Positions 22,243 to 43,731 of a stretch of 64,000 nucleotides of DNA are shown piece by piece (positions within the stretch are counted from its first letter, which is position 1; each line of letters begins with the position of its first letter). Made by a program: the position numbers and the translations under genes. Below the pieces are notes generated by a model. That model was not told the DNA's origin. It ran no database searches and was given only the letters and a program-made list of their open reading frames with translations. This stretch comes from Escherichia coli (GTDB lineage Bacteria; Pseudomonadota; Gammaproteobacteria; Enterobacterales; Enterobacteriaceae): assembly GCF_011045215.1 (NCBI RefSeq), contig NZ_CP049201.1; one strand, given 5' to 3'.

Positions 22243-22255
22243 ACAATTCAATCAG

Positions 22256-23419: not shown

Positions 23420-23645
23420 TTTCTTTCCTCTGTTATGCCATCACCCGCGCTCACCTGGACAGTATGCAGCGGAGACTGAAGCGCCGCAATGCAAGCTTGC
23501 CGTGTTGTGAGGTAAGGAGATTTTGGCTTGGTTGGATCTTTACGTGTTGCCTGTAGGCGGCCTGTTCGTATCCAGTTGGTGGCGGTTGGTCTGGATATAT
23601 TAAGAAACTGACAGGCCTCATCGAGTGTGAGGCTGTATGGCTCCA

Positions 23646-23646
<1 letters not shown>
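23275..23646 (-). CDS. excisionase/AlpA-like HTH protein (start chosen at [10 protein letters not shown]...)
   Basis: HTH motif [26 protein letters not shown]; directly upstream of and overlapping int; 3' extent uncertain. Confidence 0.5.
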
Positions 23647-26262
<2,616 letters not shown>

Positions 26263-26272
<10 letters not shown>

Positions 26273-26811: not shown

Positions 26812-26926
26812 GTATATGCACTACACCGCGCTGAATTCTGGTAAAAGGAAGCCCTCACCATCCGGTGATTATTGAGTTAATTACGTTTCCATAAATGCCC
26901 CCGCAGGGGCATTTGCAGTAATGAAA

Positions 26927-27751: not shown

Positions 27752-27816
27752 AATAAGTCCTCACTATATAAAGATATTCAGTGATGAGATAAATAATCAG
27801 TTTATTACGAACGATA

Positions 27817-28179
27817 TTAACGACCTGCTGCGCGGAGTTTTCCGTCAGGTTCACCGGCAAGAGTCAGTAATTGTCCCTGGTCTTCCTGCAGAATAGTCAG
27901 GCGACCACCGCGATTGACATACATCGGCGTTTCGGTGGTGTCTTCTTCGGAAATTTTCCCGCGGTTAGTTGGGCGAACATATGAGAGTTTGTGTTTGATT
28001 TTCACACGGTTCTCATCAAACGGTTCGATTTCCAGATTGAGTGAGACCTTCCCTTTGGTTTTCGTGTTCATCACACCGGAAGCGACCTCACTGAGAACTG
28101 CGCCGATTTTGGTTTCAAATACGCCGCCGTCCAGCTCCCCGATAAATGCCTGCACATCAGTACTGCGTTCGCTAGCCAT
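27817..28179 (-). CDS. phage protein of unknown function, YfdP-like (120 aa)
   Basis: start at MASERS... preceded by AGGAG; the longer ORF upstream looks like non-coding extension. Confidence 0.55.
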   Translation of the reverse strand: MASERSTDVQAFIGELDGGVFETKIGAVLSEVASGVMNTKTKGKVSLNLEIEPFDENRVKIKHKLSYVRPTNRGKISEEDTTETPMYVNRGGRLTILQEDQGQLLTLAGEPDGKLRAAGR

Positions 28180-28199
28180 TTTGCTGCTCCTCATCATAT

Positions 28200-28645
28200 C
28201 GACCCTGCAAGGTCGGTTGGTTTCTCCACAAAACAGAGAAGAACACCTGCGGTGGCAGCCGCCCGGATGGATTGGGTTATGAGCCCGTCGTCCGGTGATG
28301 CTCTTCTCTGTTTTGCAAAAAAGGACGGTACCAGCCGGAAGCAAGGGTACAAACTGGTACCGCCAGGACTACACACAGCATAAAGTTGTGGTGCCGGGTG
28401 CCTCCCGGTGCCTGGCGAAGGTTGCACACCAGGCGGGTGGGTATCCACAGAAGGTCGACTGTCAGCCTCAACCTTAACCCGCGTGCGCTGAGCCGCATTC
28501 ACCACAACGCTAAGGATTCTCTCTGGTTGAAAATACTTAGCTGTTATGTGCCTGCTTTTAGCCACATCAGGCGAGGTGGACCTGGTTATTCCCCAACAAC
28601 AAGGATTCGGTTAATCTGGATATCCCCAACAACAATAAGAGTATT
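28200..28645. other. GC-rich structured non-coding block (candidate phage ncRNA or leader); strand unknown
   Basis: nested inverted repeats, e.g. CAAAACAGAGAAGA 28229-28242 / TCTTCTCTGTTTTG 28302-28315, GGTACCAG/CTGGTACC, CGCCAGG/CCTGGCG, AAGGTTG/CAACCTT; direct repeats CCCCAACAACAA at 28591 and 28624; ORFs here are not protein-like. Confidence 0.3.
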
Positions 28646-28649
28646 CAAT

Positions 28650-29165
28650 GTGATCGCTGAATTAACGGCAGCAATGACGGCTATTCGTGAAACAGCCCAG
28701 ATTGCAAAACTAATGAACGAGGCAAAAACTCAAGCTGAAGTAAATGCGGCTATTGGTGAGCTAAACTCAAAGCTTGCGTCTATTCAGCGCGAATGCGTGT
28801 CTCTCGTTGAACTGGTGGGCTCTTATCAAGAAATAAATGCTTCTCTCAAAGCTAAAATTGCAGAATTCGAAAACTTTGAGGCTCAGACGGAAGGCTATAT
28901 CCTTAACCAACTTGAGTCGGGTACTTTTGTATACTCGAAGGAGGTAATCGTGAACGGTGGCAGCATAACCATGCATCTTTGCCCAAAATGTTTTGGACAA
29001 AAGATAGTATCGATACTTCAACCATTCCCGGTTAGCGAAGATGAGCTTTTTCATAAAAGCAGGTGCCTCCACTGTGAAAATAAGTTTCTGATGAATAAAA
29101 ATCCGGATTACGTATCGCCTCCATCCATTGAGGAGTTGTCCAGAAAACTTAACGGCAATCTGTAG
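28650..29165 (+). CDS. orphan coiled-coil / zinc-ribbon protein (about 165-171 aa), function unknown
   Basis: GTG 28650 (AAGAG upstream) or ATG 28674; coiled-coil-like N-terminal half; CPKC...(18)...CLHC motif; own terminator; between early-left operon and cI. Confidence 0.55.
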   Translation: MIAELTAAMTAIRETAQIAKLMNEAKTQAEVNAAIGELNSKLASIQRECVSLVELVGSYQEINASLKAKIAEFENFEAQTEGYILNQLESGTFVYSKEVIVNGGSITMHLCPKCFGQKIVSILQPFPVSEDELFHKSRCLHCENKFLMNKNPDYVSPPSIEELSRKLNGNL

Positions 29166-29204
29166 ATTACTACTGTTGTGGATATCCAGATTGTTAAAGA
29201 GCTA

Positions 29205-29229
29205 AGCGTCCTGTAGGGCGCTTTTTTGT
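29205..29229 (+). terminator. rho-independent terminator of the zinc-ribbon gene
   Basis: hairpin AGCGTCCTGTAGGGCGCT followed by TTTTTTG. Confidence 0.6.
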
Positions 29230-29393
29230 TGCTAACGAATCATCCTGGACTTCATATGCCCCAGGCGGCTACTTCCTGGGCGTCCTGCCTGTTCGTTTTT
29301 GACATTTACTGACTGCTTACGACACATGCACCGTGTTGCAACCAGATTTTGTTGTAATCCTGTAGTTGGTCTGGAACAAAAGATAAAATTAAA

Positions 29394-29430
29394 TTGCGAG
29401 ATATGCAAGTAATGTTTGCGAAATATGCAA
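29394..29430. promoter_or_regulatory. two 15-bp operator-like palindromes (TTGCGAGATATGCAA, TTGCGAAATATGCAA)
   Basis: same TTGCG-N5-GCAA family as sites between cI and cro. Confidence 0.4.
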
Positions 29431-29440
29431 ATTTATAGGT

Positions 29441-29464
29441 AATAAAAAGCCACCTTTCGGTGGC
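29441..29464 (-). terminator. rho-independent terminator downstream of cI
   Basis: hairpin GCCACCGAAAGGTGGC followed by TTTTTATT on the minus strand. Confidence 0.55.
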
Positions 29465-29484
29465 CGATGGATGGGATATTGAGG

Positions 29485-30177
29485 TTAATTATGTCTCTTA
29501 AGGGTTTGCGACTGACTGATTAAGACCTTTCCAAAGACCATGAATCGGTGTTCGTTTTCGCTAGTAATTCCCCATTCACGGTAAATCTGGTTATCAGAAA
29601 TCACCAGCAGTTTGTCAGGAATCATTTGAAGTCTTTTAACGTATATTTTGTCATCAAAACCAAAGACATATATACCATCACCATCAAACTGATTGATGCT
29701 GACATCAACGAAGATGAGATCTCCTGGCTCAATGGTTGGACACATACTGTCCCCACGAACGTTGATAACTTTGATGTGATTGGCTGGTCGTCCGCCGAAC
29801 ATTGATACAGCATTATCAGTTCTGTATTCGATGGCATGAATCACATCAATGACATCACCGCCCTGGATAAGGCCATTTCCCGCACTGGCACTGATATCCA
29901 GCATTTCAATACGGAACACATCCTTCACCTGCGCAACATCCTCATTATTACTGTTTTTATATACAGTATTACTTTTGTGGGCAGAGGTAAAGAGATCAGC
30001 AATATCAACACCTAAGCTCTTGGCAATATTACTCAGTGTTTGTTCGGTAAATTGTTTTTGCTTACCCGTTTCTAAGCGCGAGATGTTCGCCGCATCTACT
30101 CCTATTGCTTCAGCGAGATCGGCGATTTTCATGTTCTTCGCTTGGCGAAGTTGTCTGACTCGGTTTCCTATGTTCAT
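29485..30177 (-). CDS. phage CI-type repressor (XRE HTH plus S24 LexA-like peptidase domain)
   Basis: 230 aa; N-terminal HTH; C-terminal region with GDSM and a conserved Lys typical of S24 autopeptidases; divergent from cro. Confidence 0.8.
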   Translation of the reverse strand: MNIGNRVRQLRQAKNMKIADLAEAIGVDAANISRLETGKQKQFTEQTLSNIAKSLGVDIADLFTSAHKSNTVYKNSNNEDVAQVKDVFRIEMLDISASAGNGLIQGGDVIDVIHAIEYRTDNAVSMFGGRPANHIKVINVRGDSMCPTIEPGDLIFVDVSINQFDGDGIYVFGFDDKIYVKRLQMIPDKLLVISDNQIYREWGITSENEHRFMVFGKVLISQSQTLKRHN

Positions 30178-30197
30178 GCGTTTATTACATTTCTTTA

Positions 30198-30260
30198 TTG
30201 CGTGATAAGCAAATCAACTTGCGCAAAATAATTGCGTGAAATAACATGCATAACGCGCAA
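30198..30260. promoter_or_regulatory. OR-like operator/promoter region between cI and cro
   Basis: TTGCGTGATAAGCAA (30198-30212), TTGCGCAA, and reverse-complement site ATGCATAACGCGCAA (30246-30260) in the 97-bp divergent intergenic region. Confidence 0.5.
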
Positions 30261-30274
30261 TATTTGGAGGGCAT

Positions 30275-30535
30275 ATGCAATCACCATTACGAAATGTGCG
30301 TAAGGCGCATGGTTTCACTTTGCAGCATGTTGCTGCGGGTGTTCAAGTCAATCCAGCGACGTTGAGTCGTATTGAGAGGCTGGAGCAGATTCCATCTATC
30401 GAGCTTGCAGAACGTTTAGCCAATTTTTTTAAGGGTGAAGTCAGCGAAATGCAGATTCTTTATCCGGCACGTTTTCAATCTAGCCAAAACCAGAATGGGT
30501 TTAAACCACAGGAACAGGAGGTGAACCGTGGGTAA
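30275..30535 (+). CDS. Cro-like HTH regulator
   Basis: 86 aa; HTH GFTLQHVAAGVQVNPATLSRIER; divergent from cI. Confidence 0.7.
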   Translation: MQSPLRNVRKAHGFTLQHVAAGVQVNPATLSRIERLEQIPSIELAERLANFFKGEVSEMQILYPARFQSSQNQNGFKPQEQEVNRG

Positions 30536-31079
30536 GCATCACTGGAAAGTAGAAAAACAGCCTGAGTGGTACGTGAAAGCTGTCAGAAAAACTATCGCAG
30601 CGTTGCCGGGGGGGTACGCTGAAGCTGCTGACTGGCTGGATGTAACAGAGAACGCATTATTTAACCGCCTTCGTGCCGATGGCGATCAGATTTTCCCGCT
30701 GGGATGGGCAATGATTTTGCAACGTGCTGGTGGAACTCACTTCATTGCTGACGCTGTGGCGCAGTCTGCAAATGGCGTCTTTGTGTCTCTTCCTGACGTC
30801 GAGGATGTGGACAACGCCGATATTAACCAGCGCCTGCTGGAAGTCATTGAACAGATCGGCAGTTATTCAAAACAGATTCGTTCAGCAATTGAAGACGGTG
30901 TAGTGGAACCGCATGAGAAGACAGCAATTAACGACGAGCTGTACCTCTCAATTTCGAAGCTGCAGGAGCATGCAGCACTGGTCTACAAAATTTTTTGCAT
31001 TTCAGAAAGTAATGACGCCCGCGAGTGTGCAGCTCCGGGCGCCGTGGCGTGTCGTGACTGTGGAGAAACTAACGCATGA
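30528..31079 (+). CDS. phage CII-like regulatory protein (CP76-type)
   Basis: 183 aa; position after cro; family assignment from memory. Confidence 0.45.
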
Positions 31080-31434
31080 ACAGTTTAACAACACACTACC
31101 GTCGCTCGCAACTGATTGCGCTTCCTGTACCGGGTGGAAAAGCGAAGGTGGAGTATTGCTATGCAGTAAATGTACCAGGTGACAGGGAAATTGTAACCCA
31201 CAGCTTTGCAGAGTGGGCTGTGGGTGATTTCAACCGGCAGAAGGAGACAGTCCTTTGCGACAAGTTAACCGCTGGTTCAAAGATCACTACGGAGTGCCCG
31301 TCAGAGTCATTCGTTGGGAGCCGGAAACACAACGTGTTATCTACCTCCGCGAAGGCTATGAGCATGAGTGCTTCAGCCCGCTCGAACAGTTTCGTCGTAA
31401 ATTCAGGGAAATAGAGGTCGGTCATGAGCACTAA
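31076..31434 (+). pseudogene. phage gene with apparent frameshift
   Basis: protein-like translation switches between two reading frames near 31230-31260; 3' part ends overlapping the next start. Confidence 0.35.
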
Positions 31435-31787
31435 ATTAACCGGCTATGTATGGGATGGTTGCGCTGCATCAGGCATGAAATTATCCAGCGTGGCAATTAT
31501 GGCCCGCCTGGCTGATTTCAGTAATGACGAAGGTGTGTGCTGGCCATCAATTGAAACCATTGCCCGCCAGATTGGCGCGGGGATGAGTACCGTCAGAACG
31601 GCTATCGCACGGCTGGAAGCAGAAGGCTGGTTAACGCGTAAGGCGCGTCGCCAGGGTACCGTCGTGCCGCAACCGTGTGGATGGCGGCATTCCGTGAAAG
31701 CCACTCCCAGCCAGAACGAAACAATTTTCTGGCGCGTCGTGAGCGGTGCTTACGGAAAAGCAGCAAGCGCGCTGCATCGGGTGAAGA
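31424..31787 (+). pseudogene. replication-associated HTH protein, probable remnant
   Basis: N-terminal ~90 aa resemble phage replication-initiator HTH domains; rest of the ORF to 32089 is low-complexity Gly/Arg-rich and overlaps the next gene in another frame. Confidence 0.3.
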
Positions 31788-32147
31788 GTGGTATCTGTCA
31801 GGGAATTACGTGGGGGCTTAATGACGACGTTAACTCAATGCCAGCAGCAGGTGCTGGATATGCTGATTTCTTACCAGAAAGAACGTGGCTTCCCGCCAAC
31901 CAATCAGGAGGTGGCTACCATGCTGGGATACCGTTCAGTGAATGCAGCGGTGGAGCATCTTCGCGCACTGGAGAAAAAAGGCGTCATCACGATAAAGCGT
32001 GGCGTGGCCCGGGGCATCACGCTTCATACCGCGGTGAAGGACGACGACAGCGAGGTGGCCGGGATTATCCGCGCACTGCTTGCTGGTGAGGAAAACGCCA
32101 GGCTGCGTGCAGCCCACTGGTTACATGAGAGGGGGCTGAAAGTATGA
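31788..32147 (+). CDS. winged-helix DNA-binding protein (LexA N-terminal-like)
   Basis: GTG 31788 or ATG 31821; stop coupled to rusA start. Confidence 0.45.
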   Translation: MVSVRELRGGLMTTLTQCQQQVLDMLISYQKERGFPPTNQEVATMLGYRSVNAAVEHLRALEKKGVITIKRGVARGITLHTAVKDDDSEVAGIIRALLAGEENARLRAAHWLHERGLKV

Positions 32148-32521
32148 AGCTGATTCTGCCTTTTCCACCCAGCGTGAACACCTACTGGCGACACCCCAAC
32201 AAAGGGGCATTTGCTGGTAAGAGCCTGATAAGCGCGGCGGGGCGAAAATTCCAGAGTGCGGCGTGCACAGCAATAGTTGAGCAGTTACGTCGTCTGCCGA
32301 AACCAACGTCGGCACCTGCTTCAGTGGAGATCGTGTTGTTTCCTCCGGATAACCGGATCCGCGATCTGGACAACTATAACAAGGCGCTGTTTGACGCCCT
32401 GACCCACGCGGGTGTGTGGGAAGACGACAGCCAGGTGAAAAGAATGCTGGTGGAGTGGGGACCGGTTATCCCGGAAACGGATGTTGCGGGTTGTTGTTCT
32501 GCGGGTTCTGTTCTTCGTTGA
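32144..32521 (+). CDS. rusA: RusA-family Holliday-junction resolvase
   Basis: 125 aa; conserved RDLDN...ALFDALT...DD motifs; C-terminal tail atypical. Confidence 0.65.
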   Translation: MKLILPFPPSVNTYWRHPNKGAFAGKSLISAAGRKFQSAACTAIVEQLRRLPKPTSAPASVEIVLFPPDNRIRDLDNYNKALFDALTHAGVWEDDSQVKRMLVEWGPVIPETDVAGCCSAGSVLR

Positions 32522-32723
32522 CATGAGGTTGCCCCGTATTCAGTTTCGCTGATTTGTATTGTCTGAAGTTGTTTTTACGTTAAGTTGATGCAGATCAATT
32601 AATACGATACCTGCGTCATAATTGATTATTTGACGTGGTTTGATGGCGTAGATGCACGTTGTGACATGTAGATGATAATTATTATCATTTTGCGGGTCCT
32701 TTCCGGCGATCCGACATGTTACG

Positions 32724-32735
32724 GGGCGGCGACCT
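32724..32735. other. lambda-type cohesive end site cosN, with cosB-like sequence to 32912
   Basis: GGGCGGCGACCT followed by CGCGGGTTTTCGCTATTTATGAAAATTTTCCGG, matching the remembered lambda left end, directly upstream of Nu1. Confidence 0.8.
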
Positions 32736-32912
32736 CGCGGGTTTTCGCTATTTATGAAAATTTTCCGGTTTAAGGCGTTTCCGTTCTTCTTCGTCGTAAC
32801 TTAATGTTTTTATTTAAAATACCCCCTGAAAAGAAAGGAAACGACAGGTGCTGAAAGCGAGCTTTTTGGCCTCTGTCGTTTCCTTTCTCTGTTTTTGGCC
32901 GTGGAATGAACA

Positions 32913-33458
32913 ATGGAAGTCAACAAAAAGCAGCTGGCTGACATTTTCGGTGCGAGTATCCGTACCATTCAGAACTGGCAGGAACAGGGAATGCCCGTTC
33001 TGCGAGGCGGTGGCAAGGGTAATGAGGTGCTTTATGACTCTGCCGCCGTCATAAAATGGTATGCCGAAAGGGATGCTGAAATTGAGAACGAAAAGCTGCG
33101 CCGGGAGGTTGAAGAACTGCGGCAGGCCAGCGAGACAGATCTCCAGCCAGGGACTATTGAGTACGAACGCCATCGACTTACGCGTGCGCAGGCCGACGCA
33201 CAGGAGCTGAAAAATGCCAGAGACTCCGCTGAAGTGGTGGAAACCGCATTCTGTACTTTCGTGCTGTCGCGGATCGCAGGTGAAATTGCCAGTATTCTCG
33301 ACGGGATCCCCCTGTCGGTGCAGCGGCGTTTTCCGGAACTGGAAAACCGACATGTTGATTTCCTGAAACGGGATATCATCAAAGCCATGAACAAAGCAGC
33401 CGCGCTGGATGAACTGATACCGGGGTTGCTGAGTGAATATATCGAACAGTCAGGTTAA
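32913..33458 (+). CDS. nohD: terminase small subunit Nu1 homologue
   Basis: 181 aa, near-identical to remembered lambda Nu1 (MEVNKKQLADIFGASIRTIQNWQEQGMPV...). Confidence 0.9.
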   Translation: MEVNKKQLADIFGASIRTIQNWQEQGMPVLRGGGKGNEVLYDSAAVIKWYAERDAEIENEKLRREVEELRQASETDLQPGTIEYERHRLTRAQADAQELKNARDSAEVVETAFCTFVLSRIAGEIASILDGIPLSVQRRFPELENRHVDFLKRDIIKAMNKAAALDELIPGLLSEYIEQSG

Positions 33459-34324
33459 CAGGCTGCGGCATTTTGTCCGCGCCGGGCTTCGCTCACTGTT
33501 CAGGCCGGAGCCACAGACCGCCGTTGAATGGGCGGATGCCAATTACTATCTCCCAAAAGAATCCGCATACCAGGAAGGGCGCTGGGAAACACTGCCCTTT
33601 CAGAGGGCCATCATGAATGCGATGGGCAGTGACTACATCCGCGAGGTGAATGTGGTGAAGTCTGCCCGTGTTGGTTATTCCAAAATGCTGCTGGGTGTTT
33701 ATGCCTACTTCATAGAGCATAAGCAGCGCAATACCCTTATCTGGTTGCCGACGGATGGTGATGCCGAGAACTTTATGAAAACCCACGTTGAGCCGACTAT
33801 TCGTGATATTCCGTCGCTGCTGGCGCTGGCCCCGTGGTATGGCAAAAAGCACCGGGATAACACGCTCACCATGAAGCGTTTCACCAATGGGCGTGGCTTC
33901 TGGTGCCTGGGCGGTAAAGCGGCAAAAAACTACCGTGAAAAGTCAGTGGATGTGGCGGGTTATGATGAACTTGCTGCCTTTGATGAGGATATTGAACAGG
34001 AAGGCTCTCCGACGTTCCTGGGCGATAAGCGTATTGAAGGCTCGGTCTGGCCAAAGTCCATCCGTGGCTCCACGCCCAAAGTGAGAGGCACCTGCCAGAT
34101 TGAGCGTGCAGCCAGTGAATCCCCGCATTTTATGCGTTTTCATGTTGCCTGCCCGCATTGCGGGGAGGAGCAGTATCTTAAATTTGGCGACAAAGAGACG
34201 CCGTTTGGCCTCAAATGGACGCCGGATGACCCCTCCAGCGTGTTTTATCTCTGCGAGCATAATGCCTGCGTCATCCGCCAGCAGGAGCTGGACTTTACTG
34301 ATGCCCGTTATATCTGCGAAAAGA
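33433..34324 (+). pseudogene. terminase large subunit (lambda A) N-terminal ~297 codons, truncated
   Basis: matches lambda A up to ...YICEKTGIW, then diverges into junk; junction near 34324. Confidence 0.8.
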
Positions 34325-34364
34325 CCGGGATCTGGAGGGGAATACCAACATCGCCGGTGTCACG

Positions 34365-34823
34365 GTGGTGTTCCGGGCAGGTGAACAGGAGCAGACACCG
34401 CCGGAGGGATTTGAATCCTCCGGATCCGAGACGGTGCTGGGTACGGAAGTGAAATACGACACGCCGATCACCCGGACCATCACGTCTGCAAACATCGACC
34501 GTCTGCGCTTTACCTTCGGTGTGCAGGCACTGGTGGAAACCACCTCAAAGGGGGACCGGAATCCATCGGAAGTCCGCCTGCTGGTTCAGATACAACGTAA
34601 CGGTGGCTGGGTGACGGAAAAAGACATCACCATTAAGGGCAAAACCACCTCGCAGTATCTGACCTCGGTGGTGGTGGGTAACCTGCCGCCGCGCCCGTTT
34701 AATATCCGGATGCGCAGGATGACGCCGGACAGCACCACAGACCAGCTGCAGAACAAAACGCTCTGGTCGTCATACACCGAAATCATCGATGTGAAACAGT
34801 GCTACCTTCTGCCCGTAAGGTGA
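34365..34823 (+). pseudogene. internal fragment of tail tip protein J
   Basis: translation ...GTEVKYDTPITRTITSANIDRLRFTFGVQALVETTSKGDRNPSEV... matches the middle of lambda J. Confidence 0.75.
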
Positions 34824-36004
34824 ATGGTAAGGCGCTTTCAGCGGATATAACACTGACGCCGAAAGATATTGGTACGCTTAACTCAACAACAATGTCATTC
34901 AGCGGTGGTGCTGGTTGGTTCAAATTAGCAACGGTAACCATGCCACAGGCGAGTTCTGTTGTTTCAATTACGTTGATTGGTGGAGCTGGATTTAACGTGG
35001 GGTCACCTCAACAGGCAGGTATATCTGAACTTGTTTTGCGTGCAGGTAATGGTAATCCGAAGGGGATTACTGGTGCTTTATGGCAGCGCACATCGACAGG
35101 GTTTACAAATTTTGCCTGGGTCAATACATCTGGTGATACTTACGATATTTACGTTGCAATCGGAAATTATGCGACTGGTGTAAATATTCAATGGGATTAT
35201 ACCAGTAATGCCAGCGTGACGATTCATACGTCACCAGCATATTCTGCTAATAAGCCGGAAGGGTTAACGGACGGTACAGTTTATTCACTCTATACGCCAT
35301 CAGAACAGTTTTATCCGCCTGGCGCACCAATCCCGTGGCCATCAGATACCGTTCCGTCTGGCTATGCCCTGATGCAGGGGCAGACTTTTGACAAATCTGC
35401 CTACCCGAAACTTGCAGTCGCTTATCCGTCAGGCGTGATCCCTGATATGCGTGGCTGGACGATTAAGGGCAAGCCCGCCAGTGGTCGTGCCGTATTGTCT
35501 CAGGAACAGGACGGCATTAAATCGCATACCCACAGCGCCAGCGCATCCAGTACGGATTTGGGTACGAAAACCACATCGTCGTTTGATTACGGAACCAAAT
35601 CCACGAATAACACCGGGGCGCATACCCATAGTATTAGCGGGACTGCAAATAGTGCCGGTGCGCACCAACACAAGAGTTCCGGTGCATTTGGTGGCACGAA
35701 CACGAGCATTTTTCCTAATGGTTATACTGCGATTTCAAATCCAAGCGCGGGGATTATGAGCACAACAAGCGGTACTGGCCAGACTCGTAATGCAGGGAAG
35801 ACATCATCAGATGGTGCTCATACCCACTCACTGTCCGGCACTGCTGCAAGCGCAGGTGCACACGCACATACTGTCGGTATTGGTGCTCATACGCACTCCG
35901 TTGCGATTGGTTCACATGGACACACCATCACCGTTAACGCTGCTGGTAACGCGGAAAACACCGTCAAAAACATCGCATTTAACTATATTGTGAGGCTTGC
36001 ATAA
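34799..36004 (+). CDS. side tail fibre protein, C-terminal portion (Stf-like)
   Basis: 401 aa; Gly/Ser/Thr/His-rich repeats (GAHTHS, GAHQHK, GAHAHT) typical of tail-fibre C-termini; followed by tfa. Confidence 0.6.
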
Positions 36005-36585
36005 TGGCATTCAGAATGAGTGAACAACCACGGACCATAAAAATTTATAATCTGCTGGCCGGAACTAATGAATTTATTGGTGAAGGTGACGCATATATTC
36101 CACCTCATACAGGTCTGCCAGCAAACAGTACCGATATTGCACCGCCAGATATTCCGGCAGGCTTCGTGGCTGTTTTCAACAGTGATGAGGCATCGTGGCA
36201 TCTTGTTGAAGACCATCGGGGTAAAACGGTTTATGACGTGGCTTCCGGCGACGCGTTATTTATTTCTGAACTCGGCTTATTACCGGAAAATGTCACCTGG
36301 TTATCCCCGGAAGGGGAGTTTCAGAAGTGGAACGGCACAGCCTGGGTGAAAGATGCAGAAGCAGAAAAACTGTTCCGGATCCGGGAGGCGGAAGAAACAA
36401 AAAACAACCTGATGCAGGTAGCCAGTGAGCATATTGCGCCACTTCAGGATGCTGTAGATCTGGAAATCGCAACGGAGGAAGAAAACTCGTTGCTGGAAGC
36501 CTGGAAGAAGTATCGGGTGTTGCTGAACCGTGTTGATACATCAACTGCACCTGATATTGAGTGGCCTGTAATACCAGAAGTTTAA
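36004..36585 (+). CDS. tail fibre assembly protein (Tfa)
   Basis: 193 aa; stop/start overlap with stf. Confidence 0.75.
36424..36548. repeat. direct repeat copy 1 (3' end of tfa)
   Basis: about 90 percent identical to 40254-40380. Confidence 0.7.
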
Positions 36586-36590
36586 AATAA

Positions 36591-36616
36591 AAGCCCGCTT
36601 AAAATATCGCGGGCTT
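36591..36616. terminator. bidirectional hairpin terminator between tfa and the catalase operon
   Basis: AAGCCCGC-TTAAAATAT-CGCGGGCTT. Confidence 0.55.
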
Positions 36617-36704
36617 CGAAATATAAATGTATTTTCAGAGGCTAGAGCTTAGGATATCTCAGCGGCAATTAACTTATGAGGGATAGCTAAATACCAGAAG
36701 ATAA

Positions 36705-37595
36705 TTAGTTTTTACTATTTATCTTTGTTTGTGGTTCTCCTTCAGCAAGCTCAGCGCCAGTGACAGGATTGATGTCTTCATGGGATTTCAACCTTGTTGC
36801 CATAGCTTTTATCATAGCTTCTTGCTTGGTCGAAAGATTTATCGAGGCCTTCCCATCCCCACCGTCAACCGCTGGAACTGGATCGGAAATATAGTCAAAG
36901 TTTTCATCACTGTTCCAACTACCTCTGACGTCTTCACCTTCTGACATGTTGTAATATACGTTTTTGTATTTCTCAATTGGTGGTAATTTTCCTGGTGGAA
37001 AGGTGTTGCGAATTGAATGTAATGCTTTTTCAAATGAAAGCATGTGTGCTGCTTCCCTGGTCATTAAAAATGCCAGAGTGTCTTTTACTCCAGGATCATC
37101 AGTAACATTAATGAGACGTTCGTAAATGATCTTTGCCCGAGCTTCAGCTGCAATATTTGAACGAAGATCGGCCGTGACTTCGCCAATAGTATCAACATAA
37201 GCTGCAGTCCAGGGTACTCCAGCTGAATTAGTTAATGCTGGGCCTCCTCCGTAGAGGAGAGAAGTTATATGGCTGTCATTGCCATTTTGAGTTAAGGAAC
37301 GGTAAAGCTCAGCTTCATTCTCAGTTCCTTCAGCAAGTGCTCCTTTTGCACCTTTGTTGAGCATACCAACAAGAGAACCAATAATTTCGAGATGACTTAG
37401 TTCTTCTGTTGCTATGTCCATCAGCATATCCCTTCGGCCTGCATCTTCATCACTTAAGCCTTGAGTGAAGTATCGGCATGCTGCTGCAAGCTCACCCTGT
37501 GGCCCGCCGAATTGTTCTAAAAGTAGATTAGCCAAGCCTGGGTTTGGCTCACTTACACGTACTGTATATTGAAGTTTTTTCACGTGTCTAAACAT
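36705..37595 (-). CDS. manganese (non-haem) catalase, KatN-like
   Basis: 296 aa ferritin-like di-metal protein; last gene of the yciG/yciF/yciE-like operon, as in the Salmonella yciGFE-katN arrangement. Confidence 0.7.
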   Translation of the reverse strand: MFRHVKKLQYTVRVSEPNPGLANLLLEQFGGPQGELAAACRYFTQGLSDEDAGRRDMLMDIATEELSHLEIIGSLVGMLNKGAKGALAEGTENEAELYRSLTQNGNDSHITSLLYGGGPALTNSAGVPWTAAYVDTIGEVTADLRSNIAAEARAKIIYERLINVTDDPGVKDTLAFLMTREAAHMLSFEKALHSIRNTFPPGKLPPIEKYKNVYYNMSEGEDVRGSWNSDENFDYISDPVPAVDGGDGKASINLSTKQEAMIKAMATRLKSHEDINPVTGAELAEGEPQTKINSKN

Positions 37596-37613
37596 AATGC
37601 CTCCTCAAAAGAA

Positions 37614-38120
37614 TTATTTTTTGGCTTCAACTCCATCAATTTCAGATCTGACCATGAATTGCTCAGTGGTGTCAGGAATATGGTTAAGAAGCCATTCAGC
37701 CATTTGTTTTTCTTCATTAAGAATTGCTTCAATAATGGGTACTGAAGCTGTATCACCCGCATTTTTGGCTGCTGCGAGAAGAGATGTGTAGCACGCAATT
37801 TCAAATTGTTCGAAAACATAGCCACTGATCGAACCTTTGACAATTTCATCAGATGGAAAAATTCCACCAATGGATTGCCCAAACGCGGCCATTTTACTCA
37901 TAGAGTCTTTAATGACAGAGCGCGAAATATTATTACGATCAAGTATGCTTTCAAGCTGTGAAAGCTGGTTCTTTGTTTCGCTAATGTGCTGCTCAATTCT
38001 GGAACGTAACTCTGGATAGTTTTCTATCCGGCTGGCCATAGACTCAAGCATTTTTTCAGCTTGTTTCTCCATCGCATGTGCATCACGAAGCCAGTCATGG
38101 TAATGTTCAATTCTATTCAT
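37614..38120 (-). CDS. DUF892 ferritin-like stress protein, YciE-like
   Basis: 168 aa; recognised as a YciE paralogue. Confidence 0.7.
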   Translation of the reverse strand: MNRIEHYHDWLRDAHAMEKQAEKMLESMASRIENYPELRSRIEQHISETKNQLSQLESILDRNNISRSVIKDSMSKMAAFGQSIGGIFPSDEIVKGSISGYVFEQFEIACYTSLLAAAKNAGDTASVPIIEAILNEEKQMAEWLLNHIPDTTEQFMVRSEIDGVEAKK

Positions 38121-38156
38121 AATCTGTTTATCCTAAAAGAAATTGAAGTCTATAGT

Positions 38157-38663
38157 TCAGGAGTTATCCTGAGCTTTTTTATTAACGTTATTAAATGCCA
38201 GGTCTGTTAATTTGACATCAGTAGCTTTTTCCTCTTCCAGTGTTTCTTTCAGGAGTTTAGCCGCTTTTTTATATCCTAATTGCTCAGCGAGTGTTACCAA
38301 AGTGCCATAACTGGCAATTTCATAGTGCTCTACTTTTTGTGCTGCAGCAATCAATGCAGCATCACGTACTTCATTTTTATCAGTGCTTTCAATTACCTCA
38401 TTCGCCTCTTCGATAAGTCCTTCCATTGCGGCACACTTAATTCTTTTCAATTTAAGACCATCTTCAGAATCAACAATCTGATCGATGCGTTCAATTTGAC
38501 CATGTGTCTCATCAAGATGTGACTGAAAAGCAGCGGTTAATTTATCACTATATGCAGAGCGACTAAGTTTAGACAGTGCCTTTGTTAGTTGTTTCTCAGC
38601 GCTGTATGTATCCGATAATAAGTGGATGAAGATATCTTCAACAGATTTAATTTGCATAATCAC
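38157..38663 (-). CDS. DUF892 ferritin-like stress protein, YciF-like
   Basis: 168 aa; recognised as a YciF paralogue. Confidence 0.7.
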   Translation of the reverse strand: MIMQIKSVEDIFIHLLSDTYSAEKQLTKALSKLSRSAYSDKLTAAFQSHLDETHGQIERIDQIVDSEDGLKLKRIKCAAMEGLIEEANEVIESTDKNEVRDAALIAAAQKVEHYEIASYGTLVTLAEQLGYKKAAKLLKETLEEEKATDVKLTDLAFNNVNKKAQDNS

Positions 38664-38735
38664 TCCAGAGTTTTCACTGCGAGCCCGTAGGCTCGCAGTT
38701 AGCTTCAGTTATTCACGAATGTAGGGGATGATAAA

Positions 38736-38918
38736 TTAAGAGTCAGATTTACGGCCGCCACCATGGCTATTCTGACCACCTTTTTTCCCTGCTTCTGATG
38801 CTCTTTGTGGATCGTTTTTAAAATTACCGCCACTATGTTGGCCGCCTTTACGACCAGCGTCAGAAGCTTTTTGTCGATCTTCAGCGAAATTACCTGCACC
38901 GCCACGATGTTCGGTCAT
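38736..38918 (-). CDS. KGG-repeat general stress protein, YciG-like
   Basis: 60 aa with repeated KGG / RKGGQ motifs. Confidence 0.65.
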   Translation of the reverse strand: MTEHRGGAGNFAEDRQKASDAGRKGGQHSGGNFKNDPQRASEAGKKGGQNSHGGGRKSDS

Positions 38919-39422
38919 ATCATTTCTCCTCTGATTTTCAAATTGTAAATAACATGTGCCTTGTCAGCACCCAATTAACTCTAGTAACAAATAAGAAAGT
39001 GTCAAATAACAGATTGGTATGCGCATTTTGATGTGAGAAATAATAATTGTAAAAATGTGCGCTCAGTGAGTATAATCTATTGATATCTTAGTGATTAACG
39101 GAAAATTTAGGTTGTAACTCAAAAGATTAATAAACCTAAATTTACATTTCTATATTATTTGGTGTGCCTGTTGTTGTTTTTCTCAATAAGAATACTCTGT
39201 AAAATAATTCAATCGTAAGATGGTTGTTATTCATATTTTTTTGAGATAGTTCCTAATAGGGTCCATCCCTTGAATAAATAATTGTTTTAAAATTTCGTCT
39301 AAAGAACTAATTACAAGAAAATTTATATAGTCCAAGGAATCATGATTGTACTTAACCATAAGATTTGAGCGTAAAAATTAATGCGCAGCACGTCGTATGC
39401 AAGAACGTGCTGCGGTTGGATG

Positions 39423-40091
39423 CTATTTTTTCCCTGAAGCGGAAAACATTACTACAGTACCTTGAACCTTGGTTTTAACATTCTCGAAATGCTCTGAGAG
39501 TATATGTGTTAAGCCTTCTTCGGAATCTCTTGTGTTTGAAAAGATGCCTTTCTGATTGTAAATGCGCATCAGTTTTTGACCGAAGCGATTGTGCACAATT
39601 CCATCGCCAAGAATTGTGGCTCCGTATAGAGTTCCATCGCCAGTTAAGGCCTGCGCCGCATTGCGTATTACACAGCTTTTTGTAGATATATTTCCAGGCA
39701 GGCAGTGAAGAAGGTAAAACATGGAAATGGAATCAAATTGACCATGTAACGCCGCGGGATAAGGTTCAAAAACATCATGGCTAATTTTATGTTTAATTTT
39801 TGATTCCCCAGCCCTTGTAGATGCCGCGTTCAGGCTAGCTTCGTTCAAATCCATTAAAGATATCAGACTACTCTCAGGTACGTGAGTAAGGTAAAACCCA
39901 GTTCCAACACCAATATCCAGATGGTTGTTACCTAAATGTTCCAGAAAGTGTGGAAGAAGGTGTTCCTTTGTAGGACATCCCCATGCAAGCCGATTTGATA
40001 CTCCCAAAACCCACCAGTCATAAAGCTTTAGGGTAAGTGGTGTGTAAATTTTAGCCCCATCATCTGTGTTTTTTTTCATTAATTTCACCAT
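39423..40091 (-). CDS. class I SAM-dependent methyltransferase
   Basis: 222 aa; motif I LDIGVGTG; hairpin terminator just downstream. Confidence 0.65.
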   Translation of the reverse strand: MVKLMKKNTDDGAKIYTPLTLKLYDWWVLGVSNRLAWGCPTKEHLLPHFLEHLGNNHLDIGVGTGFYLTHVPESSLISLMDLNEASLNAASTRAGESKIKHKISHDVFEPYPAALHGQFDSISMFYLLHCLPGNISTKSCVIRNAAQALTGDGTLYGATILGDGIVHNRFGQKLMRIYNQKGIFSNTRDSEEGLTHILSEHFENVKTKVQGTVVMFSASGKK

Positions 40092-40147
40092 GTTATAGTT
40101 TTATTTGTGAATTAAATCAATTATGGCAATGAATTACAAGGGGTTAA

Positions 40148-40453
40148 ATGCTGCCGCAGCATGGCGATATTGAAATAGCCTGGTATGCTTCAATACAGCA
40201 GGAGCCGAATGGCTGGAAGACCGTCACCACACAGTTCTACATCCAGGAATTCAGTGAGTATATTGCGCCACTGCAGGATGCTGTAGATCTGGAAATCGCA
40301 ACGGAGGAAGAAAGATCGTTGCTGGAGGCATGGAATAAATATCGGGTATTGTTGAATCGTGTTGATACATCAGTAGCTCTGGGTATGAAGCTGTTTGTAA
40401 CTCATGTTACAGTAACAGCCATTACTATCTCGAAGGTGCAAAATGTATATTGA
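40148..40453 (+). pseudogene. tail fibre assembly (tfa) 3' remnant
   Basis: only the C-terminal Tfa segment ([34 protein letters not shown]) is recognisable. Confidence 0.6.
40254..40380. repeat. direct repeat copy 2 (tfa 3' end)
   Basis: pairs with 36424-36548. Confidence 0.7.
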
Positions 40454-40636
40454 TTTGATATTTTATAAATTTACTTCGAATCTGGCACGTCAACTTTTGA
40501 TTAAAGTAATATCAGTTTTCGGCGAAAAAAGGACCGTGTACATGAGACGATTTCATACAAGAATAACAAAAATATGAATATGCTCCCAATGCAATATATG
40601 TTTTGCATTGGGAGCAAATAGCGGAATATTTTGAAA

Positions 40637-42121
40637 TTATTGTATTTCTGCTTCAGAATTTCCTGGGCAGTATATATTTTCTATTTTTTGTGGAGTGATC
40701 AGGTGATGTACAACTGCTTTATCTACACATAAATTAACTCCGGTGAGAGCTAATGTATGCCCATCACCATTTATTGTTAGTAACGGGCTGGAAAATTTCT
40801 CTGCCATCTTACGGGCATTAATCCAGGGCGTTGTTGGATCGTATTTGTGTGCTACAAACAGTAAACCAGAGGGCAGAACAGTATTTTTCAGGCGAGTTTT
40901 GTTCAGGTCGCTATGTATTGGCCATAATTCACAAAAATCAGGTGAATCGGAACGTCCATTGTCAAAGTTAATAGCCGGGAAGGCATTCGCAAGAGCCTCT
41001 TTTCGGAATTTTCGCTCTTCTGGTGTTAATTGCTCATCCCCCTGATCTACACAAAGGATTACCCCCGAAGCATCACTTGACTCTTCTGAGGCTATCGGAG
41101 CACTGAGCGCAGTTTCAATTTCATTACTGACAATCCCCTGAGAGAACTGGCGTATGGCAGTTGCAAGGGTTGGCCATGATGAACGCCATAGCAGAAGGTC
41201 TGTTGTTAATGATATGAGTTCATCTGAAGATATATTTTCTCCCTTACTGTCTAATAAAGGTTTGTGATGTAATTTTGATAATAGCTCATGGAACTGAGTT
41301 ATTGCCTTATCTCTGTCTGAAGAAAGCGGGCAACTTTTTGTACGCGCACACCAGGATGCAAAGCGATCAAACGTTTCCTGATAACTCTGTGCCTGTTTGA
41401 GTTGCCATGTGAAGTTGTTCTCCAGGTCATCGATATCGACGACTCCATCAAGAACGATAGATCTTACGTTGTAGGGAAAACGTTCTGCATATAAGGCTGC
41501 AATTTGAGTTCCATACGAATACGCCACGGCTGTCAGTTGTTTATCCCCCAAGGCTTGCCTAATACGATCAATATCGTATACAGCCTCGTTAGAGCCGATA
41601 TGGCGAATGACTTCGGCTCCGGTATTATGGATACAGGCATTAATTTTATTTAATACTTGTTGCTTTTCGGTTATGTTTTCCTGAGTCTCTGTATCTGATT
41701 GTCGGCAGTTTATTGTCGGAGTGGACTGTCCGACGCCTCGAGGATCAAATCCAATAATATCCCATGACTCACGAAGATTTGTGACTGGCCAGTCAAAGTT
41801 AATATAAGGATTTATGCCTGGCAACCCGGGACCACCACTTATTATCAGGATACTTCCTTTATGCTTGCTTTTTGCCGGCAATTTTGTCAACGCTAGTTTG
41901 ACTTGTGATTTTTTTTCATAAGAAGCATCTCCGCCTGTGTCTGTATATTTTAATGGAACAGACAAATAACCACATAGTAAGTCAGGAGACGGTTTTTCCT
42001 CACCAAACCAGTGGTTGAATTGACTGGCCATACAGGATTGCCACTGTATCTGCTGGGCAGATACGGTTACTGGTAGAAGTAACGTTAAAACAACTTTGAA
42101 ATGAGTAATTATTTTTCGCAT
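40637..42121 (-). CDS. secreted alpha/beta-hydrolase (peptidase S33-like)
   Basis: 494 aa; N-terminal signal peptide; GGPG and nucleophile-elbow-like AYSYG motifs. Confidence 0.6.
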   Translation of the reverse strand: MRKIITHFKVVLTLLLPVTVSAQQIQWQSCMASQFNHWFGEEKPSPDLLCGYLSVPLKYTDTGGDASYEKKSQVKLALTKLPAKSKHKGSILIISGGPGLPGINPYINFDWPVTNLRESWDIIGFDPRGVGQSTPTINCRQSDTETQENITEKQQVLNKINACIHNTGAEVIRHIGSNEAVYDIDRIRQALGDKQLTAVAYSYGTQIAALYAERFPYNVRSIVLDGVVDIDDLENNFTWQLKQAQSYQETFDRFASWCARTKSCPLSSDRDKAITQFHELLSKLHHKPLLDSKGENISSDELISLTTDLLLWRSSWPTLATAIRQFSQGIVSNEIETALSAPIASEESSDASGVILCVDQGDEQLTPEERKFRKEALANAFPAINFDNGRSDSPDFCELWPIHSDLNKTRLKNTVLPSGLLFVAHKYDPTTPWINARKMAEKFSSPLLTINGDGHTLALTGVNLCVDKAVVHHLITPQKIENIYCPGNSEAEIQ

Positions 42122-42307
42122 TGTGTCTCTGAATATCGGAATAAAGATAAAATTTGAATATATTGAGGTCTTGTGTTGCGGTAAGAGATTACACGTTATG
42201 ACATAGGTTAAATGCTTACAAAATTAGTGGATATTGTCTACTTGTAACTGTAAACAAATTCCCCGGGGTTATACAATACCACCGGGGAGAAAATCTGGTT
42301 AACTTCG

Positions 42308-43261
42308 TTAAAAGGTGTACTTAAGACCAGCAGTAGTGATGAAGTTATAGTTTTCTATGCCTGCACCATTTTTGCTGTAGTCTGAAGTGTTATCATTGTG
42401 ATCATAAAGTGAAGTATTACCTTTTTTATTCGTAACCCGATTCCATGCGCCTTCAACATAAACTTTTGCGTTAGGTGTTACGTAATAACCTGCATTGACT
42501 GCAACAGAATAGTAATTTTGGTCTTTGACCTTACTGCGATAAGTGATTCTTTTTCCCGGGTCATAGTGTTCATCGTTATCAGATGATTCCACCCAGCCGC
42601 TGTATTTAAATGTGCCACCGAGTTCAAAATCTTCATAACGATAACTTCCAGTCAAGCCAATGTAGGGCATTTTAAAACGTTGTTTGTAGCCGATTGCTCT
42701 TTCTCCATTCGGGAAGGAGCCGATATCATCTCTGAATCCCTCCTCAGAACTGTAGATATAGGAACCACCTCTGGCTGTAAAGCTATAACGGCTTTCCTGA
42801 TATCCGGCCATGAGTCCCAGGCGGTAATTGGGTTCGTTGAGGAGCCAGCCTTTGATATTCAGATCAAATTCGTTGGCATAATTGAGTTGTGTATCAGGGT
42901 GCTTACTTTCATCTGTCCAGGTTCCGGGGTTACTGGAATCCATCCAGTCCTGATCGACCATATTGCCACCCCGGCTGCCGAGAGTAGTCCAGCCCGCAGC
43001 CCCAATAGATATCTGGGGCATCAAATCCCAATTAATTGCACCTTTAATAATTGCAGCGTTATTGAATTTCCAGTCGAGTTGACTGACTTTTCGGCCTCCT
43101 TCTTCAGCTAGATAAACGCGCTCTTTTGTTTTTCCGCTCAGAGTTCCAAGACTAATGTCCACATTTATGTTGTCAGGAGTAAACGATATAGTCTCGGTAG
43201 AAGCAAAAGAGCTGATCGCAATAGGGGTTGTCAGGACTATTCCCAGAAGTTTCGCCCGCAT
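42308..43261 (-). CDS. ompT: outer-membrane protease (omptin)
   Basis: 317 aa, recognised as OmpT. Confidence 0.95.
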   Translation of the reverse strand: MRAKLLGIVLTTPIAISSFASTETISFTPDNINVDISLGTLSGKTKERVYLAEEGGRKVSQLDWKFNNAAIIKGAINWDLMPQISIGAAGWTTLGSRGGNMVDQDWMDSSNPGTWTDESKHPDTQLNYANEFDLNIKGWLLNEPNYRLGLMAGYQESRYSFTARGGSYIYSSEEGFRDDIGSFPNGERAIGYKQRFKMPYIGLTGSYRYEDFELGGTFKYSGWVESSDNDEHYDPGKRITYRSKVKDQNYYSVAVNAGYYVTPNAKVYVEGAWNRVTNKKGNTSLYDHNDNTSDYSKNGAGIENYNFITTAGLKYTF

Positions 43262-43684
43262 AAAAGTTCTCCATTCAATCGTTTTAATGATTGAATATGT
43301 ATTTTTTATATCTAACTTAATGAGTCAATTACATATTGCTCCACTGTTTATATTTTGTTTAGTATTGAATGATTATCACAATGCGCTATCTATTTTTGGT
43401 TTAATTATCTGTTATTGTTTCATATTGCGGTTTTACTGTGTGTTTTTTTTATGCTTTTGTGGTGCTTTTATCTATTTAAGTGCCATGCCTTTAGAGGCAT
43501 ATAAGCGAAAATAGCACGAGGTTTATCCTCAATTGCTATGTTTTTTAGTACAAAAAAGAGGGACAAAACTGAGACACATAAGGCCTCACAATGGCTTGCA
43601 AGGCTTTACATGTTTTGAGGTAGTGGGACGTGTGAGCGCAGAGATGGCGCGGTAAGTTGTTGACTTAAAATGTCGTTCTAGGAA

Positions 43685-43731
43685 CTTCTAAGTCGTGGGC
43701 CGCAGGTTCGAATCCTGCAGGGCGCGCCATT
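43685..43731. repeat. attR core: 47-bp copy of the argU 3' half
   Basis: identical to 22196-22242; no 5' half of a tRNA is present. Confidence 0.85.

Follow-up and report, generated by a model that had tools for sequence, protein, structure and literature searches.

Whether an Escherichia coli prophage that carries a stress operon ending in a catalase gene holds a working unit or a remnant, and where such a unit came from, is the question raised by the 64-kb stretch of E. coli DNA analysed here (the window). We found four intact minus-strand open reading frames (ORFs) occupying positions 36705 to 38918 in the ORF listing, all on a single strand in the order yciG-yciF-yciE-katN, with intergenic gaps of 78, 36, and 18 bp that are comparable to those of a Salmonella locus (L009). 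Coordinates and supporting matches are collected in Table 1. The yciF-like gene starts at the ATG, as in RefSeq; the ORF listing instead takes an alternative GTG at 38663. Third-position GC content (GC3) of the cassette is low (25 to 34%), and an Rfam scan detected no regulatory RNA within it. An earlier note on this DNA had described yciG-, yciF-, yciE-, and KatN-like genes behind about 500 bp of AT-rich DNA, together spanning 36705 to 39422. These boundaries proved exact, enclosing the four ORFs and an upstream stretch that reaches as far as the neighboring ybcY-like gene with its stop codon, and the gene content was borne out by Pfam and PDB matches. We conclude that the yciGFE-katN cassette is a real, intact, four-gene operon-like unit.

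Table 1. Features of the cassette, its upstream region, and the surrounding prophage (positions in the window).
Feature	Coordinates	Strand	Basis or description
katN, manganese (non-haem) catalase, 296 aa	36705..37595	-	Pfam PF05067 Mn_catalase
yciE-like, ferritin-like DUF892 protein, 168 aa	37614..38120	-	Pfam DUF892 1.4e-50; PDB 3OGH YciE 3e-97
yciF-like, ferritin-like DUF892 protein, 166 aa	38157..38657	-	Pfam DUF892 3.4e-54; PDB 2GS4 YciF 2e-82; also 4ERU
yciG-like general stress protein, 60 aa	38736..38918	-	two Pfam KGG repeats
AT-rich upstream region, 504 bp, 30.4% GC	38919..39422		composition; window overall 49.7% GC
predicted yciG promoter, TTGACA-16 bp-TAGAGT, C immediately before the -10 hexamer	38978..39005	-	top promoter-like site in the region, 10/12 matches
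hairpin terminator AAGCCCGC-N10-GCGGGCTT, then T-run, between convergent katN and tfa	36590..36617		RNA fold -16 kcal/mol, z = -3.0
ybcY terminator hairpin	39384..39414	-	RNA fold -18 kcal/mol, z = -3.2, 0/200 shuffles as good
ybcY-like class I SAM-dependent methyltransferase, 222 aa, intact	39423..40091	-	Pfam Methyltransf_12/25/23
tfa, tail fibre assembly gene, convergent with katN	36004..36585	+	phrog_105
tfaX-like 3' fragment of a second tfa gene	40148..40453	+	K-12 tfaX annotation; right-hand direct-repeat copy
defective lambdoid prophage at argU (DLP12 site)	22193..43731		50-bp direct repeats 22193-22242 and 43682-43731

The Pfam Mn_catalase model covers KatN residues 1 to 270 (model positions 1 to 261 of 284; E = 1.1e-86), and Mn catalases in the PDB match the protein at 5e-47 (4R42/6J42) and 5e-35 (1JKU). 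In an HMMER alignment to 1JKU with verified positions, KatN residues E35, E65, H68, E151, and H184 align with the ligands E35, E66, H69, E148, and H181, and Y42 and E181 are retained at the L. plantarum second-shell positions Y42 and E178. The five 1JKU residues are reportedly the di-manganese ligands of the L. plantarum enzyme. Missing di-manganese ligands, one ground on which the earlier note would have given up its catalase assignment, are not the case: the objection fails because all five are present. Against the NCBIfam model NF052557 (ManCatBAC), KatN scores 167.3 bits, below the curated cutoff of 350, which counts against the reading preferred below; it therefore represents a subfamily other than that of the model. 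Judged by its sequence, KatN is a member of the Mn catalase superfamily outside the ManCatBAC equivalog.

The cassette resides in the prophage at argU, where a tRNA-Arg(tct) gene occupies 22164 to 22240. The prophage keeps intD, the CI/CII/O genes, and a small terminase, and carries an IS21-type istAB insertion at 24181 to 25982. The large terminase is cut off at about residue 300 and fused to a gpJ fragment, and no portal, capsid, or tail genes were detected between 22193 and 43731. A defective prophage as host, as the earlier note had proposed, is what the att repeats and the absent structural genes indicate. Decay of the host prophage counts against reading the cluster as a cargo operon. 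With tfa on one side and the right att repeat on the other, the cassette shows the marks of a "moron", namely a prophage-end position, a predicted promoter and terminator of its own, and no requirement for it in phage functions. On its flanks, the 3' 160 nt of tfa (36412 to 36571) recur at 40241 to 40400 with 83% identity (direct repeat D1), so that tfa repeats bracket katN-yciEFG-ybcY; the Rfam IS009 matches on the two tfa 3' ends were the only real Rfam matches. An 11-bp repeat, CTTCTGGTATT, occurs immediately past the katN stop codon and again at that of tfa; it is too short to separate a recombination scar from chance. The ybcY-like protein is 98.2% identical to its O157:H7 counterpart, and the K-12 annotation lists ybcY as a pseudogene. 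In the DLP12 prophage of K-12, 36 bp stand in the cassette's place.

Upstream of yciG, the proximal ~90 bp of the AT-rich region contain the predicted promoter and 5' untranslated region, and the distal part is cassette specific; no DNA homology to other genera's chromosomal loci was detected past 38955. The TTGAC (-35) and CTA...TTA (-10 region) blocks are invariant upstream of yciG across nine loci from eight genera, the window included, and between the -35 hexamer and the yciG ATG the window matches an O157:H7 strain at 100% identity. Sigma-S prefers a C at -13. Of 95 differences from O157:H7, 80 fall at 39000 to 39499, and the distal ~250 bp (~39150 to 39400) diverge by ~20 to 25% from the O157:H7 allele. 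Given this divergence, H-NS may silence the two alleles to different degrees. The distal AT-rich DNA is probably an H-NS nucleation region or target. A 42-aa ORF at 39231 to 39359 was rejected as a gene and treated as noncoding because it has no PHROG match and sits in the most variable stretch. The hairpin next to the ybcY stop codon stands between ybcY and the yciG promoter, at the left edge of K-12 homology; in K-12, the same ybcY hairpin directly adjoins tfaD.

The cassette is an intact copy of the published O157:H7 KatN stress operon and not a new one, its proteins being 99 to 100% identical to those of the Z1921-Z1924 operon published in 2017. Wan et al. (2017, PMC5363993) found z1921-z1924 of strain EDL933 to be one operon, carried by cryptic prophage CP-933X; its transcription depends strictly on RpoS and is promoted by OxyR. 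Expression rose ~450-fold in an hns mutant, demonstrating repression by H-NS, and western blots with an anti-KatN antibody found that the protein tracks mRNA in log and stationary phase (PMC5363993). The EDL933 katN deletion mutant was put through a survival assay with H2O2 at up to 6 mM, and the operon is reported to protect against this oxidant (PMC5363993). A further paper (PMC9205054) is, together with PMC5363993, a source for RpoS dependence, H-NS silencing, and the H2O2 phenotype in enterohemorrhagic E. coli (EHEC). By analogy with the EHEC allele, the window copy would be expected to be expressed in the same way.

We therefore favor, with a probability of about 90%, the reading that the cassette is a self-contained, RpoS-dependent, H-NS-silenced cargo (moron) unit in a lambdoid prophage that supplies a haem-independent catalase. 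The transcription unit would sit at the right end of the prophage, reading yciG-yciF-yciE-katN against the phage late genes from its own promoter before yciG, the putative conserved enterobacterial yciG promoter, to its own predicted terminator behind katN. As published for the EHEC allele, transcription would require RpoS (sigma-S), be aided by OxyR, and be strongly silenced by H-NS, with the AT-rich upstream DNA as the probable H-NS target. In stationary phase or under stress, the cytoplasm would then gain a haem-independent catalase of the di-manganese type, along with two ferritin-like DUF892 proteins and a small KGG-repeat stress protein, on top of what KatG and KatE and the yciGFE copy of the core genome provide.

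A different role for the same protein was put forward by Wan et al. (2017), in which KatN is primarily a type VI secretion system (T6SS) effector that lowers reactive oxygen species (ROS) in the macrophage cytosol and not a cytoplasmic stationary-phase catalase. LC-MS/MS and His-tag western blots detected KatN in wild-type supernatants but not after deletion of the T6SS; delivery into host cells was assayed with a KatN-Bla fusion, and ROS inside macrophages was lowered (PMC5363993). The secretion finding is cited by a later paper, and the window KatN is 99% identical to the protein studied. However, in the literature found, the secretion claim comes from one laboratory, and the katN mutant behaved like the wild type in a mouse model, with no attenuation (PMC5363993). 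This last result also means that any fitness benefit of the operon may be small or redundant. The KatN sequence bears no effector mark; the protein is a Mn catalase of full length whose operon partners encode cytoplasmic stress proteins, and the KatN loci of other Enterobacteriaceae are mostly chromosomal yciGFE-katN operons. No T6SS genes lie within the 64-kb window, and the cassette also occurs in otter, blackbird, baboon, wild rodent, and seawater isolates. On balance, we consider a primary effector role unlikely, while giving it appreciable weight.

Far less probable is that the cassette is a functionless passenger, silenced by H-NS and hitchhiking in a decaying prophage. The defective state of the prophage, its AT-rich flanks, and the low GC3 would fit such a passenger, as would the strong H-NS repression of the EDL933 allele (PMC5363993) and the situation in K-12, with no cassette at the same place and a ybcY pseudogene. 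Against this stand the four intact ORFs and the conservation of the cassette elsewhere: 380 of 381 carrier genomes hold it at full length with at least 97% DNA identity, across different prophages and sites, which argues for selection. The EHEC protein, moreover, is detected by western blot at levels that follow its mRNA, and the katN mutant has been assayed with H2O2 (PMC5363993). We accordingly retain the cargo operon as the preferred reading.

The 381 carriers were found among 5,426 complete E. coli genomes, and the cassette was chromosomal in every case. Genomes that bear it show two to three matching places, the extra ones probably including the core locus and ymdF. In a search with the cassette only, none of 386 matches lay on an E. 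coli plasmid. No record in the plasmid collection covers at least 80% of the cassette, and the plasmid matches listed are loci of other genera (~67 to 74% identical) or mislabelled chromosomes. Likewise, none of 50,697 deposited phage records holds at least 80% of it; the top-ranked matches listed are short fragment records or, at prophage ends, sequence resembling core yciE/ymdF, and 15 short matches reached at least 90% identity. Among 100,044 species-representative genomes, 403 KatN relatives were found. As donors, none of these exceeds 87% protein identity (Kosakonia, Phytobacter) or ~74% DNA identity, and none is linked to ybcY, tfa, or the hydrolase gene. A neighbor-joining tree of YciE plus YciF, which has no bootstrap support, places the cassette on a long branch beside the E. 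coli core copy. Tentatively, the prophage copy could be an old, separately evolving yciGFE-katN lineage, possibly nearest to the Escherichia core copy, instead of one captured recently from Salmonella or any other genus sampled. It might be swapped between lambdoid prophages (at argU here and icd in O157:H7) by homologous recombination as a tfa-bracketed right-arm module, with its variable distal AT-rich segment tuning H-NS silencing in each lineage.

A third catalase, haem independent and under RpoS control, may aid stationary-phase or iron-limited E. coli against peroxide, and EHEC KatN has been linked since 2017 to survival within macrophages. What the window contributes is one more strain that carries the module, at another prophage site, and a modest correction to the claim that only pathogenic strains have katN. 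Our additions are small: we fix the cassette boundaries exactly, find the promoter conserved and the distal AT-rich segment variable, and record the cassette in isolates from wild animals. Annotation value is likewise modest; RefSeq names these products only "manganese catalase family protein" and "ferritin-like domain-containing protein."

Compared with the characterized Mn catalases of L. plantarum (1JKU), Anabaena (KatB, 4R42), and Thermus thermophilus (2V8U), KatN belongs to the same fold family and has an identical E-E-H-E-H di-Mn ligand set. KatB is the closest of the three, matching at 5e-47 across residues 1 to 240; KatN differs from it by ~15 additional residues (roughly 83 to 110), and its 55-residue C-terminal tail falls outside the Pfam model. 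The Salmonella enterica yciGFE-katN operon is reportedly sigma-S dependent. As stated in the earlier note, the gene order is of the Salmonella type: it recurs on the chromosomes of Salmonella arizonae and diarizonae (L009 and L010), Enterobacter, Klebsiella, Leclercia, Phytobacter, and others. Salmonella and the window share gene order, spacing, and yciG promoter blocks, with protein identities of 84% (KatN), 83% (YciE), 81% (YciF), and 88% (YciG) and ~73% DNA identity. However, the Salmonella operon is chromosomal core beside trp and ompW, whereas the window copy is prophage borne; katN has 53% GC in Salmonella and 43% in the window, and the two loci have unrelated DNA upstream of the promoter. 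The K-12 core yciGFE locus (b1257-b1259 region, trpA-ompW interval) lacks the catalase, with convergent ompW directly after yciE, again in agreement with the note. It is a paralogue with the same promoter architecture, located outside the 64-kb window; identity to the cassette is 73.7% in DNA over the full 1.3 kb and 88.1%, 79.5%, and 83% for YciE, YciF, and YciG, so that the proposed second paralogous copy stands.

Closest of all is EDL933 z1921-z1924 (katN is Z1921, or ECs_1652 in Sakai), with identical gene content and order and identities of 99.0% for KatN (293/296 residues), 100% for YciE-like, 99.4% for YciF-like, and 100% for YciG-like proteins. EDL933 and the window have common flanks, running tfa, katN operon, ybcY methyltransferase, tfa fragment, alpha/beta hydrolase, and ompT. 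O157:H7 strains carry IS1203 or ISEc8 near the module, whereas that of the window is without an IS insertion. The window module sits at argU, followed by envY-ybcH-nfrAB, whereas the host prophage of O157:H7 abuts an icd fragment and iraM at the e14 site.

Four intact ORFs follow one another on the minus strand of the window (ORF listing), encoding YciG-, YciF-, and YciE-like proteins and a manganese catalase, KatN. The yciG/yciF/yciE-catalase set claimed in the earlier note is thus present and intact, with Pfam and PDB matches in agreement, and the span proposed for it, 36705-39422, comprises exactly the four genes and an AT-rich upstream stretch. With the ATG at 38657 as its start, the YciF-like ORF yields the 166-aa product annotated in RefSeq. 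PHROGs v4, too, contains a full-length family for each of the four proteins.

Features of the katN cassette, its host prophage, and neighboring genes
Feature	Coordinates	Strand	Details
tRNA-Arg(tct)	22164-22240		
50-base direct repeats	22193-22242 and 43682-43731		bound 21.5-kb prophage at DLP12 site
IS21-family element	24181-25982	+	istA-like transposase, 340 aa; istB/DnaC-like ATPase, 260 aa
Deletion scar	33433-34823	+	large terminase, cut at ~residue 300, abuts gpJ tail-tip fragment
Rfam IS009 matches	36347-36545 and 40171-40374	+	tfa 3' ends
160-nt direct repeat	36412-36571 and 40241-40400		tfa 3' ends, 83% identical
Cassette extent	~36569-39383		2.8 kb
11-bp direct repeat	36570-36580 and 36687-36697	-	CTTCTGGTATT
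Hairpin and T-run 3' of katN	36590-36617		-16 kcal/mol, z = -3.0 (RNA fold)
Catalase (katN)	36705-37595	-	296 aa; Pfam Mn_catalase, 1.1e-86
YciE-like	37614-38120	-	168 aa; DUF892, 1.4e-50; best solved structure E. coli YciE 3OGH, 3e-97
YciF-like	38157-38663	-	DUF892, 3.4e-54; best solved structure E. coli YciF 2GS4, 2e-82
YciG-like	38736-38918	-	60 aa; two KGG repeats (Pfam)
AT-rich upstream region	38919-39422		504 bp, 30.4% GC
Predicted promoter	39005-38978	-	TTGACA-16-TAGAGT
Stronger hairpin, end of upstream ybcY gene	39384-39414		-18 kcal/mol, z = -3.2 (RNA fold)
ybcY-like SAM-dependent methyltransferase	39423-40091	-	222 aa
Alpha/beta hydrolase	40637-42121	-	494 aa; Pfam Abhydrolase_1 and TAP-like C-terminal domain

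In a PDB comparison, KatN residues 1 to 225-240 aligned with solved manganese catalases from Anabaena (4R42/6J42; 5e-47), Lactobacillus plantarum (1JKU; 5.5e-35), and Thermus (2V8T). Opposite the five established metal ligands of 1JKU (E35, E66, H69, E148, and H181) stand KatN E35, E65, H68, E151, and H184; second-shell Y42 and E178 correspond to Y42 and E181. With five of five ligand positions filled, the loss of di-manganese ligands that the earlier note had named as counterevidence was therefore not observed. The score of KatN against the NCBIfam equivalog ManCatBAC (167 bits; cut-off, 350) falls below threshold, which indicates only that KatN belongs to a subfamily other than that model.

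The upstream region, described beforehand as about 500 bp and AT-rich, was indeed so (49.7% GC for the window as a whole). We compared the window with K-12, Salmonella, Enterobacter, two Klebsiella species, Lelliottia, Leclercia, and Phytobacter by aligning the 220 bp that precede yciG. At the position of the top predicted promoter, TTGAC and a CTA...TTA block were invariant; the DNA further upstream was unalignable. Sigma-S prefers a C just before the -10 hexamer, and the predicted promoter, which has a C there, fits that preference. Together, the predicted promoter and hairpins suggest that the four genes make up an insulated transcription unit, equipped with a promoter and a terminator of its own. 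The cassette is convergent with the phage late genes, the classical "moron" layout.

Alignment with K-12 placed the window in the sfm-fimZ-argU ... ompT-envY-nfrAB-cus region. The host prophage carries an integrase, an IS21-type insertion (in the early region, just after intD), CI/CII/O-like genes, and a small terminase. The junction of large terminase and gpJ implies that the whole head and tail module has been removed; the gpJ fragment is followed by a tail fibre C terminus and then by tfa, a tail fibre assembly gene. Our gene survey of the window detected no portal, capsid, or tail-tube genes in the prophage, and its truncated terminase likewise bears out the view of the host as defective. 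At the cassette position K-12 has 36 bp, between tfaD and the ybcY terminator. The katN-yciEFG-ybcY unit is bracketed by a direct repeat of tfa 3' ends. Both ends match IS009, a predicted E. coli sRNA candidate (227.6 bits and 111.4 bits, the latter just below the gathering score of 117), so the family model lies on protein-coding tfa DNA. The 11-bp repeat, which flanks the terminator spacer with one copy just after the katN stop and the other at the tfa stop, may mark a past recombination or have arisen by chance.

The ybcY-like gene, present with the katN cassette in every locus inspected, is intact in the window, whereas K-12 ybcY is an annotated pseudogene. The hydrolase gene, another uncharacterised prophage cargo gene, lies between a tfaX fragment and ompT, a place taken by appY in K-12 and several further strains; the protein has a hydrophobic N-terminus resembling a putative signal peptide.

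A single scan of species-representative genomes yielded 403 KatN relatives, and 80 loci were fetched for tblastn with the window proteins. In many genera, yciG-yciF-yciE immediately preceded katN in the same orientation, including Enterobacter, Lelliottia, Leclercia, Klebsiella, Phytobacter, and Salmonella arizonae and diarizonae, in keeping with the Salmonella gene order given in the earlier note. Salmonella proteins were 84% (KatN), 83% (YciE), 81% (YciF), and 88% (YciG) identical to those of the window. In the K-12 core locus (MC4100 record), trpA-yciG-yciF-yciE is followed by convergent ompW and, as claimed, catalase is absent. Identity of this locus to the cassette was 73.7% over all 1305 bp of DNA and 88.1%, 79.5%, and 83.3% for YciE, YciF, and YciG. 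The paralogy proposed in the earlier note therefore stands, and the copy in the window is presumably the second in this strain, whose core locus lies outside the window. Genomes with the cassette each had two to three matching places in the cassette/core DNA search, probably cassette, core locus, and ymdF.

A cassette-only query matched 381 of 5,426 complete E. coli genomes, always on the chromosome, and in 380 of these the cassette was full length at at least 97% DNA identity. Carriers were mostly O157:H7; others came from otter, blackbird, baboon, wild rodents, pig, and seawater, which tempers the published claim that katN is missing from non-pathogenic strains. The module occupies prophages at two or more sites, and in several strains the host retains a full morphogenesis set. 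In JNEC-KY175 and RM14516 it lies at argU/DLP12 as in the window, followed by appY rather than the hydrolase gene; in O157:H7 it adjoins an icd fragment and iraM. JNEC-KY175 also has a Vgr/DcrB-related/zincin-like metallopeptidase toxin island just past nfrB (36133-43405 of comparison locus L001), ~10 kb from the katN prophage; the window lacks this island and has cusS after nfrB. No close donor emerged among the sampled genera: the cassette showed ~70 to 74% DNA identity to every chromosomal locus, that of E. coli included. Its GC3 is low (25 to 34%), and an NJ tree lacking branch support groups it, on a long branch, with the E. coli core copy.

We favor, at a probability of roughly 0.9, a cargo operon whose transcription would need sigma-S and would be silenced by H-NS, and whose products would be a cytoplasmic haem-independent catalase plus accessory stress proteins. 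A silent passenger is unlikely because the ORFs are intact in the window, the full-length cassette is kept across 380 genomes, and detection of KatN protein has been published. KatN secretion was reported to be T6SS-dependent (Wan et al. 2017, PMC5363993), and the literature also offers the reading of KatN as a T6SS effector. Neither the protein nor its gene neighborhood bears an effector mark, and T6SS genes are absent within the 64-kb window; we regard this role as doubtful. The original observation is confirmed and its interpretation supported.

The cassette is already known. Beraud et al. (2010) reportedly addressed, for E. coli, both the silencing of the yciGFE(katN) locus by H-NS and its horizontal transfer. 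Our additions are minor: carrier counts and sources, sites, the variable upstream segment, and the donor search. In EHEC EDL933, Z1921 is 84% identical to Salmonella KatN and was named KatN; its operon lies on cryptic prophage CP-933X, its transcription rose >450-fold in an hns mutant, and a katN mutant and complemented strain were assayed for H2O2 survival at 0 to 6 mM (Wan et al. 2017, PMC5363993). The Sakai locus tag is ECs_1652 (PMC9205054). Cassette coding DNA is >99% identical to the O157:H7 allele and, like the core promoter, nearly invariant; 80 of 95 differences fall at 39000-39499, in and just past the distal AT-rich segment. Within the cassette, only this segment (39150-39400; ~75 to 80% identical, with indels) diverges fast. 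An O157:H7 genome matches the window at 293/296 (KatN), 168/168 (YciE-like), 165/166 (YciF-like), and 60/60 (YciG-like) residues and shows no base difference between the -35 hexamer and the ATG; O157:H7 also has the same hydrolase gene, 99.8% identical, beside ompT. EDL933 itself keeps the gene order of the window, from tail fibre and tfa through the katN operon, methyltransferase, and tfa fragment to the alpha/beta hydrolase and ompT, with ISEc8 between the tfa fragment and the hydrolase.
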